A DNA stretch of 64,000 nucleotides, from positions 2,116 to 66,115 of the forward strand of contig DAOUEQ010000036.1 in assembly GCA_034430395.1 (NCBI GenBank), given 5' to 3'. The notes under the pieces are model-generated. The model worked only from the letters and a program-made list of their open reading frames with translations. It ran no database searches and was not told the origin of the DNA. Below are positions 5,861 through 62,607 of the stretch, one piece after another. The number at the start of each line of letters is the position of its first letter. Position 1 is the first letter of the stretch. The position numbers and the translations under genes were made by a program. This DNA is from Anaerolineales bacterium (GTDB taxonomy: Bacteria > Chloroflexota > Anaerolineae > Anaerolineales > E44-bin32).

Positions 5861-6520
5861 TCACTCGAGCTGGCGTAAGACGAGCATCACTTTACCTTGA
5901 ACCTCGAGGTGTTTAGGATCCTGGATGATGATTGAGTCCATCGTGGGATTCGCAGGCTGTAGCCGGATCTTATTACCTTCATGATAAATGTATTTTAGCG
6001 TCGTCTCTTCGAGATCCCGCAGCCACACCGCCACCATATCGCCATTGCGCCAATGGTAATCGCGCTTCATCACAACAATATCACCATCACTGACCATGGC
6101 ATCGATCATTGAGTCACCCTTGACTTCAAGGGCGAACACTTCATCTGTGGTACTGAGCATGTCGCGCGTGATTTCGATCGCCTCGTCAGCACCAAACATG
6201 GGCGAATCCGTACTGGGAAGATGCACAGGTTCGCTGGCGAAGATACGACCCACCATCGGGATGCGGATCACATCGCCCAGTTTGCCCGTCGCTTTTAACA
6301 GTTTATCAGTGAGGCGGATCCCCCGGGACACGTTCTGATCGCGATCCAGGTATCCCTCTTCCACCAATCGATTGAGATTGTAATTGACAACAGATGTCGA
6401 AGAGATCCCCACAGACTTCCCAATTTGTCGAATGGATGGGGGGTAACCATTATCCGTGGAGAAACTCTGGATAAAATCCAGTATCCGCCGCTGACGGTCC
6501 GTCAATTTTCCCTTCGCCAT
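5861..6520 (-). CDS. lexA: LexA repressor (SOS regulator, S24 self-cleaving)
   Basis: 219 aa from MAKGKLTDRQRRILDFI. It has the wHTH segment PPSIRQIGKSVGISSTSVV and the Ser/Lys dyad context VKGDSM ... VVMKR. GAGGAGG lies 4 nt upstream of the ATG at 6520. Confidence 0.92.
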   Translation of the reverse strand: MAKGKLTDRQRRILDFIQSFSTDNGYPPSIRQIGKSVGISSTSVVNYNLNRLVEEGYLDRDQNVSRGIRLTDKLLKATGKLGDVIRIPMVGRIFASEPVHLPSTDSPMFGADEAIEITRDMLSTTDEVFALEVKGDSMIDAMVSDGDIVVMKRDYHWRNGDMVAVWLRDLEETTLKYIYHEGNKIRLQPANPTMDSIIIQDPKHLEVQGKVMLVLRQLE

Positions 6521-6583: not shown

Positions 6584-6626
6584 GCACACTTGTTCTTATT
6601 CTAACGGAACATACGTTCTATGTCAA
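6584..6626 (-). promoter_or_regulatory. lexA promoter TTGACA-17-TAGAAT with two LexA (Cheo-type) boxes
   Basis: Read on the minus strand: TTGACA (6626-6621), spacer containing GAACGTATGTTC (6618-6607), TAGAAT (6603-6598), then GAACAAGTGTGC (6595-6584). Confidence 0.7.
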
Positions 6627-22557: not shown

Positions 22558-23982
22558 ATGGATTTGTTTGACCACGCGATGAAGGATCGTATAGCTCGCG
22601 AAGCCCCGCTCGCTGCGCGCATGCGGCCGCGCACCATGGATGAATTCGAAGGCCAAGAAGAAATTGTAGGAGAAGATTGCCTTCTTCGGCGTGCTATCCA
22701 GGCCGATCGGCTCTTCTCTTCGATACTCTTCTGGGGGCCGCCCGGCACAGGAAAAACCACACTGGCGATGATCATCGCCAACACCACAGAATCTCATTTC
22801 ATAACAATCTCAGCTGTTCTTGCTGGGAAAGCAGATCTCCGGCGTATTATCAAGGCGACGGAGGAGCGGCGAAAACTATATGGTAAGCGCACGATCCTAT
22901 TTGTGGATGAGGTCCATCGCTGGAATAAAGCTCAACAGGATGCCCTCCTACCTCACGTTGAGAACGGGACTATCACTCTCATCGGTGCGACGACTGAAAA
23001 TCCTTACTTCGAGGTGATCGGCGCCCTCGTCTCACGCTCACGAATTTTCCAATTGCGTCCGCTTGAGGATAAGGATGTGCACGGGATTATCCAACGCGCC
23101 CTCACCGACAGCGAACGTGGATACGGCAACAAACAGATCCGGCTTGATCAGAAGGCTCTGGATCACTTGATCCGTGTGTCGGGCGGGGATGCCCGCAATG
23201 CGCTCAACGCGCTCGAACTAGCTGTGGAAACTACGCCCCCTGATAAGGATGGCGTAATTCACCTTACATTAGATGTTGCCCAGGAGTCCATCCAGCGCCG
23301 CGCGGTCCTATATGATAAAGACGGCGACGCGCATTACGACACCGTATCGGCCTTTATCAAATCGGTGCGTGGTTCCGATCCAGACGCCGCTCTTTACTGG
23401 CTGGCGAAGATGCTCTACGCCGGCGAGGACCCGCGTTTCATCCTGCGGCGGTTATTGATCCTGGCTTCGGAGGATATCGGTCTGGCTGACCCAATGGGCC
23501 TCGTTGTCGCCTCCGCCGCAGTACAAGCCTTCGAATTCGTTGGGTTACCAGAGGGGATCTATGCCCTCGTTGAGGCTACACTCTACCTGGCAACCACCGC
23601 AAAATCGAATACCGCAAGCGCCTATTTCAAGGCCTATAGATACCTCGAGGAAAAAGGTGTAGTCGAAGTCCCACAACATTTAAAAGATGCCAACCGCGAT
23701 GGGAAGGCTCTCGGGCACGGGAGGGGATATAAGTATCCACACACTCACCCCGGGCACCACATCGGGCAGGGATATTTACCTGCCTCACTCCTCGGAACCT
23801 ATTTTTACAGCCCCTCCAAACAAGGTTACGAGATCCAGATTGCTGAACGGCTTGAACGATGGCGCGCGGCGCAGCGGAAGGCATTGGATATTGATGACAC
23901 GCTCGAGCCAACCGATCTCGCCGATCAAGAGATCGATGCAATCAAGAAAAAACATACGATGCGCAGAAACAGATCGACCTAG
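22558..23982 (+). CDS. rarA: Replication-associated recombination protein A (AAA+ ATPase)
   Basis: 474 aa with Walker A GPPGTGKTTLA, Walker B LFVDEVHR and the C-terminal MgsA region YLAKM...GEDPRFI. Confidence 0.92.
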   Translation: MDLFDHAMKDRIAREAPLAARMRPRTMDEFEGQEEIVGEDCLLRRAIQADRLFSSILFWGPPGTGKTTLAMIIANTTESHFITISAVLAGKADLRRIIKATEERRKLYGKRTILFVDEVHRWNKAQQDALLPHVENGTITLIGATTENPYFEVIGALVSRSRIFQLRPLEDKDVHGIIQRALTDSERGYGNKQIRLDQKALDHLIRVSGGDARNALNALELAVETTPPDKDGVIHLTLDVAQESIQRRAVLYDKDGDAHYDTVSAFIKSVRGSDPDAALYWLAKMLYAGEDPRFILRRLLILASEDIGLADPMGLVVASAAVQAFEFVGLPEGIYALVEATLYLATTAKSNTASAYFKAYRYLEEKGVVEVPQHLKDANRDGKALGHGRGYKYPHTHPGHHIGQGYLPASLLGTYFYSPSKQGYEIQIAERLERWRAAQRKALDIDDTLEPTDLADQEIDAIKKKHTMRRNRST

Positions 23983-57614: not shown

Positions 57615-57658
57615 TTGCACGCGCTGGGTCTTAGACTATAATTACGAACAGTTGTTCG
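57615..57658 (+). promoter_or_regulatory. nurA promoter TTGCAC-16-TATAAT with a perfect LexA (Cheo) box CGAACAGTTGTTCG over the predicted transcription start
   Basis: The hexamers are at 57615-57620 and 57637-57642, the palindrome at 57645-57658 and the ATG at 57672. Confidence 0.7.
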
Positions 57659-57671
57659 AGAGACAAACACT

Positions 57672-58856
57672 ATGGGAATCCATCTACCATCCTTACTTCC
57701 ACAAATGCAAGAGCTCGGTCAATCCCTCTATGAGCGAAGCCTGCAGTTGTCCAAGATGGTCCCCAAAGCCATTGAAGCCCTGCATGTCACGGCCGATCTC
57801 GATCACTCCGATCTTCAATCCAGAATTATGAAGGCGGGAAATCGCTGGACTGGTGCAATTCCCACCGAAGAAGCGCTCGATCAGACGTTCCCGCCGCCTA
57901 AAGCCCCACAGAGTCTCCACGTGATCGGCGCCGATGGCTCACAGATATATCCGGATCGCCACGCATCAGCGTTCTATTATTTAATCAACATAGGCAGCAT
58001 CGTCGTCTCACGCGGCAACGGCGAAACTCCCACTATCCAGCAGGAATCTCGGCTCTTTTTTGAACTCGAAGACCTTTACGGCGAAGCTGATTATCCCATC
58101 CAGAATGCTTATGTTAATCTGCGGCGTGATGTCGCCGAGATGAAGATCCTCACAGAACGGGCTGAAACCCTGGCTGGCGAGAAGACTCTTGCCATTCTGG
58201 ACAACAGTCTTCTATTGTGGATGGCGCTGCAAACTGGCGGGTCAGCATCTCGGGAGACGGATCGTTACCTCCAGCAGTATCTAAAACTGCTCGATCGTTT
58301 GCACTCCTCGGAGACAGGCCTTGCAGGTTTCATCGACCGCCCGCGGAGTGTAAGCGTGCTTGCCTTGATCCACCTTGCTGGGTTACCAGGCGATCAGATT
58401 ACTCAGGATTCTGTACACCTGACACCCTTCCGCGGTCTAACTGATCGGGCAATTTTCACCCATTTGCTACCACCCGGTCATCGCAGCGCGATTTTCATCT
58501 CAGCGTCACCGTTAAATAGCGACTTCCGCACGGCCGGTCACGAAATCCATTTCTTCTATCTGAAGACTGCCGCTGATGACACGGTTGTGCGAGTCGAAAT
58601 CCCGATCTGGGTCGCACAAGACCCTGAGCTGCTCAATCGTGTTCATGCCGGTATTTTGCAGGATTGCCAGACGACAGGAGGGTTCCCCTATACATTGGTG
58701 CGAGCCCATGAATTGGCGGTTATCCCTCCGCAAGAGCGAGCTGCTTTCGATGATATGCTGCAACGCACGCTCATCGGACACGGTCTGCGCCCTTCACAAT
58801 CTCAAAAAGCACTCACAAAAGAGCTCACCGGAAAGCGGAAACACTATCGGTTATAA
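57672..58856 (+). CDS. nurA: NurA-domain 5'-3' nuclease
   Basis: 394 aa. The motif HVIGADGSQIYPD matches the N-terminal catalytic Asp (xDGS) of NurA. Gene order with a HerA-type ATPase supports the call. Confidence 0.7.
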   Translation: MGIHLPSLLPQMQELGQSLYERSLQLSKMVPKAIEALHVTADLDHSDLQSRIMKAGNRWTGAIPTEEALDQTFPPPKAPQSLHVIGADGSQIYPDRHASAFYYLINIGSIVVSRGNGETPTIQQESRLFFELEDLYGEADYPIQNAYVNLRRDVAEMKILTERAETLAGEKTLAILDNSLLLWMALQTGGSASRETDRYLQQYLKLLDRLHSSETGLAGFIDRPRSVSVLALIHLAGLPGDQITQDSVHLTPFRGLTDRAIFTHLLPPGHRSAIFISASPLNSDFRTAGHEIHFFYLKTAADDTVVRVEIPIWVAQDPELLNRVHAGILQDCQTTGGFPYTLVRAHELAVIPPQERAAFDDMLQRTLIGHGLRPSQSQKALTKELTGKRKHYRL

Positions 58857-59525: not shown

Positions 59526-61187
59526 ATGTCAGACTCATCTGAACTTGACGTTTTTTTCGGTTCCAAACGAGATGAACGCCCTCTGGGGATTGTCCTGGAG
59601 GGATCGCTTTCCACCGGCCTGCAGGTTAAATTAGACCCGCGATATGCAATCGAAAAACTCGCCGTAGGAAGATATGTCGTCATCCAGAGCCGAAAAACCG
59701 GCAGCATTTTCTTCGGGATCATCACCGATATCGCTCTCGGAGCGACCACGCCTGATCTGCTACATCATCCACCCGATGCCTCGGATCCATTCCTGCTCGA
59801 TGTGTATTCCGGCGGGGTGGCCTTCGCCACGCTGCACGTCAGCCCGATGTTAATGCTCGATGATGCGGACGATCAACCCCGCCCCATAAAGACGATTCCC
59901 TCACATTTCTCGGCCATCTATGAGGCAACGGCGCAGGATGTCGCCCGTGTATTCGGAGAGGAGGACGAGGCGCACTTCTTCATCGGAGCACCGCTGGATA
60001 TGGAGGCCGTTCAGGTCAACCTCGATCTAGAAAGGTTCGTTGAGCGCTCATCTGGAGTGTTTGGAAAGACGGGCACAGGAAAATCGTTCATCACACGCAC
60101 GATCCTCGCCGGCATCATACGCTCAGGCCTGGCATCGACGCTGATTTTCGACATGCATAACGATTACGGATGGTCGGTTATGGACGAGACCGGCCGAGAG
60201 TATAAAGGATTGAGGCAGCTCTTTCCAGATGGACGTGTTAGTGTGATCACACTTGATGAGACAACCTCGCGCGCCCGAGGTAGCAAGTTCGATGGGATCC
60301 TTACCATCGGTTATGAGGAGATCGAGCCTGAAGACATGGAAATGTTGGCATCCTTGCTCGGGTTGAGTGACATTCAAACCGGCGCGCTCTACTTCCTTTA
60401 CCAACGTTTAGGCAGGAAATGGATCTCGAAATTACTGGATGAACAGCACGAGGAAGAGATTCAGAATATGCTCGATAGCGGTCGCATTGTGGGAGGAACG
60501 CTGGGAGCGATCCGGCGCAAGCTCGAATCCTTCATCCCTCGCATGGGATTTCTCGTACCCGGTGAGGGGTCAAAGGTGGTCGATGATATCTTCCAACGAC
60601 TCAACATTGGAACGAGCGTTGTCCTTGAGTTCGGAAATTACGGAAACACTTTGGCCGCCTACGTGTTGGTCGCCAATTACCTCACCCGACGTATCCATGC
60701 AAGCTACGTCCATCGTAAAAACATTGCTGCCGGGAAGAAAGGCGAAGAGCCCCGCCCACTCGTGATCGTGATCGAGGAGGCGCATAAATTCCTCGACCCA
60801 AGCGTCGCCGGGCATACGATCTTCGGTAACATCGCCCGGGAGCTGCGTAAATACAACGTGACCTTGCTGATCGTCGATCAGCGGCCGAGCGGCATCGAAG
60901 ATGAGGTGATGAGCCAGATCGGGACTCGGGTGACCTGTTTGCTCGATAATGAAGCCGACATTCGGGCTGTTTTCTCGGGTGTAAGCGGAGCAAGCACTCT
61001 ACGCGAGGTGCTCGCCCGCCTTGACACCCGTCAACAGGCACTCATTCTGGGTCACGCCGTTCCTATGCCCGTAGTCGTCCGCACTCGAGATTACGATCAG
61101 CGTTTCTACGCTGCGATTGGCATGGACGAATCCGATGATGCCTCGGGGGCAAAGCCACCCGCAGAGGACAAACTTTTCCCGGATTGA
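59526..61187 (+). CDS. herA: HerA-like hexameric ATPase/translocase (DUF87 type)
   Basis: 553 aa with an N-terminal barrel, Walker A GVFGKTGTGKSF, Walker B LVIVIEEAHKFL and the later LLIVDQRPS. Confidence 0.8.
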   Translation: MSDSSELDVFFGSKRDERPLGIVLEGSLSTGLQVKLDPRYAIEKLAVGRYVVIQSRKTGSIFFGIITDIALGATTPDLLHHPPDASDPFLLDVYSGGVAFATLHVSPMLMLDDADDQPRPIKTIPSHFSAIYEATAQDVARVFGEEDEAHFFIGAPLDMEAVQVNLDLERFVERSSGVFGKTGTGKSFITRTILAGIIRSGLASTLIFDMHNDYGWSVMDETGREYKGLRQLFPDGRVSVITLDETTSRARGSKFDGILTIGYEEIEPEDMEMLASLLGLSDIQTGALYFLYQRLGRKWISKLLDEQHEEEIQNMLDSGRIVGGTLGAIRRKLESFIPRMGFLVPGEGSKVVDDIFQRLNIGTSVVLEFGNYGNTLAAYVLVANYLTRRIHASYVHRKNIAAGKKGEEPRPLVIVIEEAHKFLDPSVAGHTIFGNIARELRKYNVTLLIVDQRPSGIEDEVMSQIGTRVTCLLDNEADIRAVFSGVSGASTLREVLARLDTRQQALILGHAVPMPVVVRTRDYDQRFYAAIGMDESDDASGAKPPAEDKLFPD

Positions 61188-61356
61188 CCCCTTAGTTATT
61201 TTTCCACCGAATGAATCCTCACAAGAAGTATCACTTCGATTTCTCGGTCGCCGTTTCACGGCTCACTCGAAATTACATTGATTGAGAAGACCTGGTTTAA
61301 AGCATAGCCCGGAGATCCACAAAAGATCCGACCGAACCCCGCTTATCACCTGTTCA

Positions 61357-61385
61357 TTGTATTAACAGAACATTTGTGCTATTCT
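61357..61385 (+). promoter_or_regulatory. Promoter TTGTAT-17-TATTCT with a LexA-like box GAACATTTGTGC in the spacer; the ATG lies 7 nt after the -10 (leaderless)
   Basis: The -35 is at 61357-61362, the box at 61368-61379, the -10 at 61380-61385 and the ATG at 61393. The architecture matches the lexA promoter. Confidence 0.55.
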
Positions 61386-61392
61386 GTATACA

Positions 61393-62607
61393 ATGGATCC
61401 TGTAGAAAAACTCGCCATCTCCAGTCGGGAAACCACTTTCGAGGCCGATGGGCTCCCGCTGACAACTCGTCCGAATAACCTTGCCGGTGGTTTACAGCCA
61501 TCCGTGATCAGCAGGCGCTTTGGCGATCCGGACAAGGTCCACCGTGTGCGTTCTGACGGACACGATTTCCACGTTCACCTCGCCGCAAGCGGTGGAGGGC
61601 GTCAGCTTCCCCTGCTTAAGGCCATGCTTACCTCTGCGTGTGAACGGAATTGTAATTATTGTCCTTTTCGCGCCGGGCGAGACTTCCGCAGGGTAACTTT
61701 CAGACCGGAGGAACTCGCACAGACATTCTTCGCTGCCCATCGCTCCGGGCTTGTCGAAGGCCTCTTCCTTTCAACTGGCATCTTCGCCGGCGGGGCAAAC
61801 ACACAGAATAAGCTTCTGGAAACAGCCGAAATCCTGCGCAGGAAGTTTAGCTATCGTGGCTACCTGCATCTGAAGATCATGCCGGGGGCTGAACGCGGCC
61901 AAGTTCTGAGCGCGATGAAACTCGCCGACCGTATATCGACCAATCTTGAGGCCCCCAACGCATCTTGCCTTCAAAAATTAGCCCCGCAAAAGGCGTTTAA
62001 AGAGGAATTGGTTGCTCCACTTCAATGGGCGCAGGAGATTCGCCAAACCTTACCAGCCCATCTTGGGTGGCGCGGTCATTGGCCCACCAGCACCACCCAG
62101 TTCGTGGTTGGCCCGGCCGGAGAGACGGATCTGGAACTCTTGAGCACCGTCGATAATTTGCATCGCCAAGCAGAATTGCAGCGCGCCTATTTTGAGACTT
62201 TTAGTCCTGTTGAAGGAACACCGATGGAGAACCACCCACCAGAGGATCCACAACGCAAGGTGCGGCTCTACCAGGCTTCTTTCTTGCTGCGCGATTATGG
62301 TTTTAATCTGGAGGAACTCCCCTTCGCACCGATAGGTAATCTCCCCAAAGAGATCGATCCCAAGGTGGCTTATGCGAATCAGGTTATCCGCGGGAATCCC
62401 GTAGAAATTAATAAGGCGGATCGCAATGAGCTAATTCGTGTGCCCGGGATTGGCCCACGCGGAGCAGATCAGATCTTGAAGGCACGCGACATATCTAAAA
62501 TCCGCGAACTTGGTCAACTCCGCCGCTTTGGTGTCCTCACCAAACGCGCCGCACCTTATATCACGCTGAATGGAGCCACACCATCCAAACAGCTAACGCT
62601 ATTCTGA
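61393..62607 (+). CDS. Putative DNA modification/repair radical SAM protein with C-terminal helix-hairpin-helix
   Basis: 404 aa with the CxxxCxxC cluster CERNCNYCPF and the C-terminal HhH LIRVPGIGPRGADQILKAR. Length and layout match the TIGR03916-type family as I remember it. Confidence 0.75.
   Translation: MDPVEKLAISSRETTFEADGLPLTTRPNNLAGGLQPSVISRRFGDPDKVHRVRSDGHDFHVHLAASGGGRQLPLLKAMLTSACERNCNYCPFRAGRDFRRVTFRPEELAQTFFAAHRSGLVEGLFLSTGIFAGGANTQNKLLETAEILRRKFSYRGYLHLKIMPGAERGQVLSAMKLADRISTNLEAPNASCLQKLAPQKAFKEELVAPLQWAQEIRQTLPAHLGWRGHWPTSTTQFVVGPAGETDLELLSTVDNLHRQAELQRAYFETFSPVEGTPMENHPPEDPQRKVRLYQASFLLRDYGFNLEELPFAPIGNLPKEIDPKVAYANQVIRGNPVEINKADRNELIRVPGIGPRGADQILKARDISKIRELGQLRRFGVLTKRAAPYITLNGATPSKQLTLF

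Follow-up and report, generated by a model that had tools for sequence, protein, structure and literature searches.

The dodecamer GAACATTTGTGC at positions 61368–61379 of the window (the entire 64,000-nucleotide stretch of DNA analyzed here) is very probably a working LexA operator, located within the spacer between the −35 and −10 elements of a sigma-70-type promoter that would drive a stand-alone, leaderless gene for a radical-SAM protein with a helix-hairpin-helix (HhH) domain. On the plus strand, this promoter consists of the −35-like hexamer TTGTAT (61357–61362; 3/6 match to TTGACA), a 17-nucleotide spacer (61363–61379) whose final 12 nucleotides are the putative operator, and the −10 hexamer TATTCT (61380–61385; 4/6 match to the consensus, with A2 and T6 retained), which the operator directly abuts; seven nucleotides (gtataca) then separate TATTCT from the ATG at 61393. 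The operator is of the Cheo type, with one mismatch to GAAC-N4-GTTC, and its right half-site, GTGC, includes T61377 and G61378, followed by a single C and then TATTCT, so that a TG dinucleotide (61377–61378) occupies positions −15/−14, one base upstream of the −10 hexamer, and may serve as an extended −10 element. The promoter is a weak one, with 7/12 consensus positions matched in total, and it is absent from the list produced by a generic promoter scan because its −35 matches at only three of six positions. A minus-strand promoter in the same upstream region was considered and dismissed upon reading of the sequence, given that it has neither a good −35 element nor a gene to drive. The initial annotation of this locus had placed the −35, the spacer with its box, the −10 and the ATG correctly, as re-reading shows, and its central proposal, namely, a leaderless gene whose promoter contains a LexA-type box, appears well founded in the light of the conservation among orthologs described below.

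The gene downstream of this promoter (61393–62607, plus strand, 404 codons) encodes a 404-aa protein in which Pfam profiles detect a radical-SAM core (PF04055), with the cluster motif CERNCNYC, and a C-terminal HhH domain (PF12836). The three cysteines of the CxxxCxxC motif (C83, C87 and C90) are invariant in the alignment of homologs, the nearest of which come from Anaerolineales. The TIGR03916 profile (“putative DNA modification/repair radical SAM protein”) aligns with the protein over profile positions 45–380 of 415, with a score of 251.7 bits, which is under the cut-off of 343.5. The protein can be tentatively assigned to COG4277, following the name that JGI gives to its homologs. The AlphaFold (AF2) model (pLDDT 78) is a generic radical-SAM barrel for which the top 50 Foldseek matches include HydE, BioB (biotin synthase), PFL-AE (PFL activase), LipA and viperin. 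Resemblance to spore photoproduct lyase (SplB, COG1533) was considered and rejected: this family is absent from the top 50 Foldseek matches, and a sequence search of the PDB produced no solved structure matching the radical-SAM core. The HhH domain, the name of the family and the predicted regulation are all suggestive of a role in DNA repair. The start codon at 61393 appears to be correctly assigned. An in-frame TAA at 61363–61365 makes this ATG the first canonical start; the numerous homologs, 402–410 aa in length, cover 100% of the query; and the N-terminal motif MDxxxKL is conserved, in which M1 and L7 never vary and D2 and K6 are shared by at least 90% of the sequences. In the orthologous loci, likewise, an in-frame stop is mostly found 4–30 codons upstream of the start.

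Examination of the regions upstream of orthologous genes provides the principal evidence on the operator. A single scan of species-representative genomes yielded 80 orthologous loci, which carry the label Chloroflexota apart from one contig that is probably mis-binned; 71 of the 80, from Chloroflexota and with 50–89% protein identity, had usable upstream sequence. In 57 of these 71 orthologs, a GAAC-N4-GTTC box with at most one mismatch starts 24–27 nucleotides before the start codon, compared with about 0.1 of the 71 loci expected by chance in that four-nucleotide interval; elsewhere in the same loci, the box occurs at the random rate (3.7e-4 per position). The initial annotation had proposed conservation upstream of orthologs as a check on the box, and the outcome is strongly positive. 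The rest of the promoter is conserved along with the operator: the hexamer immediately 3′ of the box fits TANNNT in all 57 cases (TATAAT in 37 and TAAAAT in 8), the gap between this hexamer and the start codon is 6 nucleotides in 39 loci, 7 in 13, 8 in four and 9 in one, and a TTG-starting −35 element is located 17 nucleotides from the −10 in 41 of the ortholog promoters and 16 nucleotides from it in 14. The flanks outside this promoter/operator cassette are unalignable. Among the 14 loci that lack the box so defined, several carry a two-mismatch version at the same place, such as GCTCATTTGTTC, and five (L035, L051, L058, L068 and L069) have the arrangement TATAAT-ta-GAACATATGAGC, in which the start codon lies within the box. 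Perfect operators are uncommon in this family (only 8 of 59), most of the sites having exactly one mismatch (GAAT in 19 of the 59, GTGC in 12 and GACC in 5), which suggests that these operators might be tuned to a sub-maximal affinity.

The motif is linked to LexA by the promoters of lexA itself. The lexA gene of the window (5861–6520, minus strand) encodes a 219-aa protein that scores 173 bits against TIGR00498 (cut-off, 111), with 219-aa homologs that cover 100% of the length of the product. Its promoter region (6584–6618, minus strand) reads, on its own strand, TTGACA-ta-GAACGTATGTTC-cgt-TAGAAT-aa-GAACAAGTGTGC and contains two putative operators, box 1 (GAACGTATGTTC, 6607–6618) in the spacer and box 2 (GAACAAGTGTGC, 6584–6595) just past the −10 hexamer TAGAAT. 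A matrix built solely from foreign radical-SAM sites, that is, those of the orthologs, was used to scan both strands of the window; this matrix replaced a count of the loose pattern GAACNNNNGTKC, which alone was not significant (7 strand hits versus 4.2 expected in the window). The top match of the matrix is lexA box 1, followed by the radical-SAM box, a box upstream of nurA and lexA box 2, after which there is a gap in the scores: in the symmetrised matrix, these four sites score 13.2–18.5 bits, and the next site 12.1. The radical-SAM box itself scores 16.4–17.3 bits with the foreign-site matrix, and shuffled windows contain 0.03–0.13 sites as good. The matrix scan proposed in the initial annotation thus ranks the box among the top four sites in 64 kb. 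One metagenome scan with the LexA alignment produced 76 usable lexA loci, and at least one box is present upstream of 73 of these related lexA genes. The two-box layout is kept in the closest relatives (L081–L091 and L132), where box 2 has the GTGC right half (GAACAAGCGTGC, GAACGAATGTGC, GAACATGCGTGC); GTGC can therefore be read as a conserved feature of the autoregulatory operators of this lineage rather than the mark of a decayed site. The LexA proteins of this lineage keep the catalytic Ser and Lys, but 110 of 120 homologs carry Ala-Ser at the cleavage site in place of the canonical Ala-Gly; damage-induced self-cleavage is therefore presumed.

The resemblance between the radical-SAM and lexA promoters is more limited than first proposed. 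As had been noted, the radical-SAM box departs from lexA box 2 only within N4, specifically, at two positions. A lexA-like promoter architecture had also been claimed, of which the box within the −35/−10 spacer stands as the sole shared feature, whereas lexA has a second box and a leader of about 75 nucleotides with a GAGGAGG ribosome-binding site. The alignment of the plus-strand sequences of the two promoter regions, for which a 35-nucleotide lexA string (located at 6587–6621) had been quoted, is real as sequence but, because lexA is on the minus strand, it pairs the antisense strand of lexA with the sense strand of the radical-SAM gene. An element farther upstream, CACCTGTTC/TATCACCTGTTC (61344–61355), was evaluated as a second operator of the radical-SAM gene and rejected, with a score of −0.5 bits, equal to background, and conservation only in the closest relatives.

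The right half-site GTGC deserves separate consideration. Twelve radical-SAM operators, including the one in the window, have the form GAAC-N4-GTGC, with proteins that are 54–89% identical, and GTGC is invariant among them while N4, the −10 and the −35 vary. The concern, raised in the initial annotation, that GTGC might be too weak a half-site for LexA appears to be answered by this invariance together with the conservation of lexA box 2. The GTGC-type operators also differ from the others in the adjoining promoter elements. TATAAT is the −10 hexamer in none of the 12 but in 37 of the 47 others (Fisher 6e-7, a value that overstates independence given that the 12 operators probably represent one monophyletic clade and few independent events); instead, the GTGC-type promoters have TATTCT, TATTAT, TACAAT, TATACT, TATCAT, TACACT or TATGCT. 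Their best −35 elements match TTGACA at no more than five of six positions, and at no more than four in 9 of the 11 scorable cases, whereas 15 of the 47 non-GTGC operators are accompanied by a perfect TTGACA. Thus, in all 12 cases, the TG at −15/−14 accompanies −10 and −35 hexamers that depart from consensus. The extended −10 element is TGn, or TRTGn in Gram-positive bacteria, and we infer that, in this clade, the GTGC half-site also acts as an extended −10, offsetting the weak hexamers. It is also conceivable, albeit as a tentative idea that may well be wrong, that GTGC became fixed next to the −10 because the same bases constitute TGn, so that promoter strength and repression would reside in the same two nucleotides and the operator would be sub-optimal by design, and that this arrangement, combined with leaderless translation, would make for an early and fast SOS gene.

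The ATG at 61393 lies so close to the −10 hexamer that the mRNA is predicted to be leaderless. From the spacing, transcription would start at 61392–61393, 6–7 nucleotides past TATTCT on the plus strand, leaving a leader of 0 or 1 nucleotide. No Shine-Dalgarno-like (GGAG-like) run was found upstream of this ATG. The possibility that the 205-nucleotide intergenic region (61188–61392) contains a leader RNA or a riboswitch was examined and discarded: the region matches no Rfam family and has no significant fold (z-score, −1.1). By a crude count, a −10-like hexamer 5–8 nucleotides before the first start occurs in only 2 of the 48 long ORFs in the window, namely, the radical-SAM gene and an ORF at 22558; the leaderless layout therefore seems to be specific to the gene rather than the default of the genome. 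No terminator was found between the end of herA (61187) and the radical-SAM promoter, so some transcripts may additionally arise by read-through and carry a long leader.

Taken together, these features probably constitute a genuine switch. A LexA dimer bound to the operator would occlude the spacer, the TG at −15/−14 and the 5′ edge of the −10, thereby keeping RNA polymerase off the promoter. Upon DNA damage, LexA would be removed, presumably via RecA-stimulated self-cleavage, and transcription would begin 6–7 nucleotides past TATTCT, either with the A of the ATG or one nucleotide earlier, yielding an mRNA without a leader or Shine-Dalgarno sequence that would be translated from its 5′ AUG. 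With GTGC in place of GTTC in the right half-site, the operator would supply the promoter with a TGn element that compensates for its poor −35 and −10, so that the same bases would serve the repressor and the polymerase alike.

Two alternative explanations concern the identity of the box. Under the first, it arose by chance or is a decayed site, and its GTGC half-site is too weak for LexA to bind. Such a reading could appeal to the mismatch with GAAC-N4-GTTC and to the count of the loose pattern in the window, which does not exceed the chance level, but it hardly accommodates the recurrence of the box at the same position in the great majority of the orthologs, the invariance of GTGC in 12 operators with diverged flanks, the conservation of GTGC-type boxes in lexA promoters, and the placement of the site among the four best in 64 kb; we consider it exceedingly improbable. 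The palindrome could, alternatively, be a genuine operator that is recognized by a regulator other than LexA. The attribution to LexA is a prediction from sequence, and the unusual Ala-Ser cleavage site leaves some room for another regulator; however, the motif learned from radical-SAM promoters finds its best match in the lexA promoter, its presence upstream of nearly all of the lexA genes is the hallmark of autoregulation, and it equals the Cheo-type LexA consensus. A different regulator is, accordingly, very unlikely, and LexA remains the preferred candidate.

The other alternatives concern the genomic neighbourhood, in particular, the nurA-orf201-herA operon that precedes the radical-SAM gene. 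This operon has its own perfect box, GAACAGTTGTTC (57646–57657; 16.4 bits), three nucleotides past the TATAAT of its promoter, such that the operator lies over the start site. The three SOS promoters predicted in the window hence differ in operator placement: in the spacer and past the −10 for lexA, at the start site for nurA, and abutting the −10 for the radical-SAM gene. It had been proposed that the 57.6–62.6 kb region is a contiguous SOS-controlled repair island, and such a co-inherited unit, with cooperation between NurA-HerA and the radical-SAM protein, would be consistent with the presence of two LexA-box promoters on the same strand 3.7 kb apart and with the recurrence of the adjacency in other genomes: herA is upstream of the radical-SAM gene in 3–4 of the 80 loci (L002, L005 and L010, plus, in L008, a herA fragment at a distance of 2.7 kb), and nurA is nearby in L002 and L005 only. 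In the remaining loci for which 3 kb of upstream sequence was available, however, neither herA nor nurA is found beside the radical-SAM gene, the downstream genes vary, and each unit has a separate operator; whatever the gene context, the radical-SAM gene retains a promoter and an operator of its own. The adjacency is thus lineage-specific, the proposed island is not a conserved one, and a functional unit of this kind seems unlikely; the window would rather contain two neighbouring but independent SOS units, nurA-orf201-herA and the radical-SAM gene. Downstream of the latter, the window contains a convergent class II aldolase gene. Among the orthologous loci, the downstream ORFs differ; the two largest clusters, which were scanned with Pfam, are DUF6504 and SET. 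A conserved partner was sought and none was found, the DUF6504 gene following the radical-SAM gene in only about 11 loci. In particular, no DUF4130/UDG-type (TIGR03915) partner is detectable in the window or among the recurrent neighbours scanned with Pfam (the two largest downstream clusters). The proximity of the operon also raises the possibility that transcription of the radical-SAM gene begins mainly at a more distant site, for instance as read-through of nurA-orf201-herA, in which case its mRNA would have a leader and the TANNNT hexamer would not be a working −10. Several observations are in line with such transcription, namely, that no terminator-like site is found within 61187–61393, that the promoter is weak by consensus, and that its start site is a prediction from spacing. 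Against this, the cassette of −35, box, −10, 6–7 nucleotides and ATG persists in all gene contexts, although herA is upstream in so few of them; the fixed distance of 6–7 nucleotides between the hexamer and the ATG is hard to account for otherwise; the same arrangement precedes the first start of only one other long ORF in the window; and, with no Shine-Dalgarno sequence ahead of it, an AUG inside a longer mRNA would be translated inefficiently. We regard transcription mainly from upstream as improbable and favor the gene's own LexA-controlled promoter.

For Anaerolineae, to our knowledge a class with almost no experimental genetics, these observations predict a well-supported member of the SOS regulon and appear to tie a partner-less radical-SAM/HhH enzyme to the DNA damage response. 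The existing picture of SOS regulation is unchanged by this finding; the overlap between the operator and the extended −10 is the only detail that is possibly new. The −35, the operator, the extended −10, the −10 and the leaderless ATG form a compact natural cassette of about 40 bp, which would lend itself to direct testing in a Gram-positive laboratory organism with a LexA that recognizes the same box.

The closest parallel to the operator is the Cheo-type operator of LexA (DinR), CGAAC-N4-GTTCG, in Bacillus subtilis and other Gram-positive bacteria. Within the Chloroflexota, a Cheo-type GAAC-N4-GTTC consensus for the LexA of Dehalococcoides was reportedly described by Fernandez de Henestrosa and colleagues in 2002. 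The window shares with this system the GAAC-N4-GTTC core with an AT-rich N4, the location on the promoter, and a lexA gene with the same boxes. Unlike in the Cheo-type system, the right half-site of the predicted operator is GTGC, which is conserved in this Anaerolineales clade, and the radical-SAM box abuts the −10, with its last bases doubling as the proposed TGn.

LexA sites and SOS genes described elsewhere offer further comparisons. A LexA site associated with Rv2578c/Rv2579 of M. tuberculosis corresponds to a ChIP-seq peak (peak 20) with RecA-dependent induction (PMC3381160); it is likewise an SOS box of the GAAC-N4-GTTC type, experimentally bound in that case and predicted in ours. “A radical SAM protein” is included in the list of the core SOS regulon of Gram-positive bacteria (PMC7739468). 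Furthermore, LexA control of the COG1573-COG4277 operon, which encodes a UDG-like protein together with a radical-SAM/HhH protein, has been reported for Verrucomicrobia, Alphaproteobacteria (including Caulobacter) and Bacteroidetes (PMC8565304). LexA control of this type of gene is therefore already published for other phyla, and the type of switch is known. As in that operon, the gene in the window has a putative LexA site and encodes a TIGR03916-related radical-SAM protein whose C-terminal domain is HhH. Unlike in that operon, the gene is alone, since no UDG/DUF4130 gene accompanies it in the window or recurs beside its orthologs among the neighbours scanned; the protein falls under the TIGR03916 cut-off, and the LexA motif does not belong to the same type as the motifs of those phyla.

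Finally, the predicted leaderless start conforms to a signal that is already associated with this phylum. Leaderless (TA-led) genes with a TAtaaT signal have been predicted in Chloroflexi as well as in Actinobacteria and Deinococcus-Thermus (Zheng et al. 2011, PMC3160421). Like these, the radical-SAM gene has a TAnnnT hexamer about 12 nucleotides before the start codon and no Shine-Dalgarno sequence; unlike these, it displays a layout that, by the crude count given above (2 of 48 long ORFs), is exceptional in the window and yet is conserved for the radical-SAM family across the class.

The window contains three SOS promoters, those of lexA, the nurA-orf201-herA operon and the radical-SAM gene, and the nurA promoter displays a third type of operator placement among them. 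This region (57637-57672) reads TATAAT-tac-GAACAGTTGTTC, followed by 14 nt and the ATG, such that the predicted operator covers the predicted start site and a short leader results, in which GAGAG is at most a weak ribosome site.

The position of the LexA box also varies among the orthologs of the radical-SAM gene. In one clade (loci L035, L051, L058, L068 and L069), in which the protein N-terminus is MSELERLKLL, the box is shifted: the promoters read TATAAT-ta-GAACATATGAGC, and the start ATG falls within the box (~20 nt around the start codon). The shifted box is of the GAAC-N4-GAGC type, that is, the type of the second box in many lexA promoters (for example, those of the relatives L114, L116 and L120). 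In another ortholog locus, L027, the -10 element is flanked by two boxes, at -36 and -13 from the start of the gene, in the order GAACGCATGTTC-TACAAT-gctca-GCACATGCGTTC-t-ATG, a predicted double operator on a leaderless promoter. Within the radical-SAM coding region of the window, GAATGTCTGTGC (61717-61728, minus strand) scores 10-13 bits with the LexA matrix, probably a chance match. Apart from the radical-SAM gene, the only long ORF of the window with a comparably placed -10-like hexamer is 22558-23982 (plus strand), where TACAAT lies 6 nt upstream of the first ATG; judging from this arrangement, it is a candidate second leaderless gene.

In about 11 Chloroflexota loci (L009, L012, L018, L021, L028, L029, L030, L039, L044, L062 and L064), a gene encoding a DUF6504 (PF20114) protein (1457-1819 in L009, ~120 aa) is located downstream of the radical-SAM gene on the same strand, in most cases directly after it, with a large intervening ORF in L028 and L029. 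No DUF6504 homolog was found within the window; this protein may be a lineage-specific partner of the radical-SAM protein. Locus L004 (DASRZI010000340.1) is labeled Candidatus Zixiibacteriota; given that its radical-SAM gene is 86% identical to that of the window and that the two share an aldolase neighbor, the contig probably derives from an Anaerolineales genome and was mis-binned.

The LexA protein itself (gene at 5861-6520, minus strand) retains its catalytic residues, Ser within KGDSM and Lys within TLK. At the cleavage site (residues 95-96), it carries Ala-Ser (GRIFASEP) in place of the canonical Ala-Gly pair; among 120 close Anaerolineales homologs, 110 likewise have Ala-Ser, and 10 have Ala-Gly.
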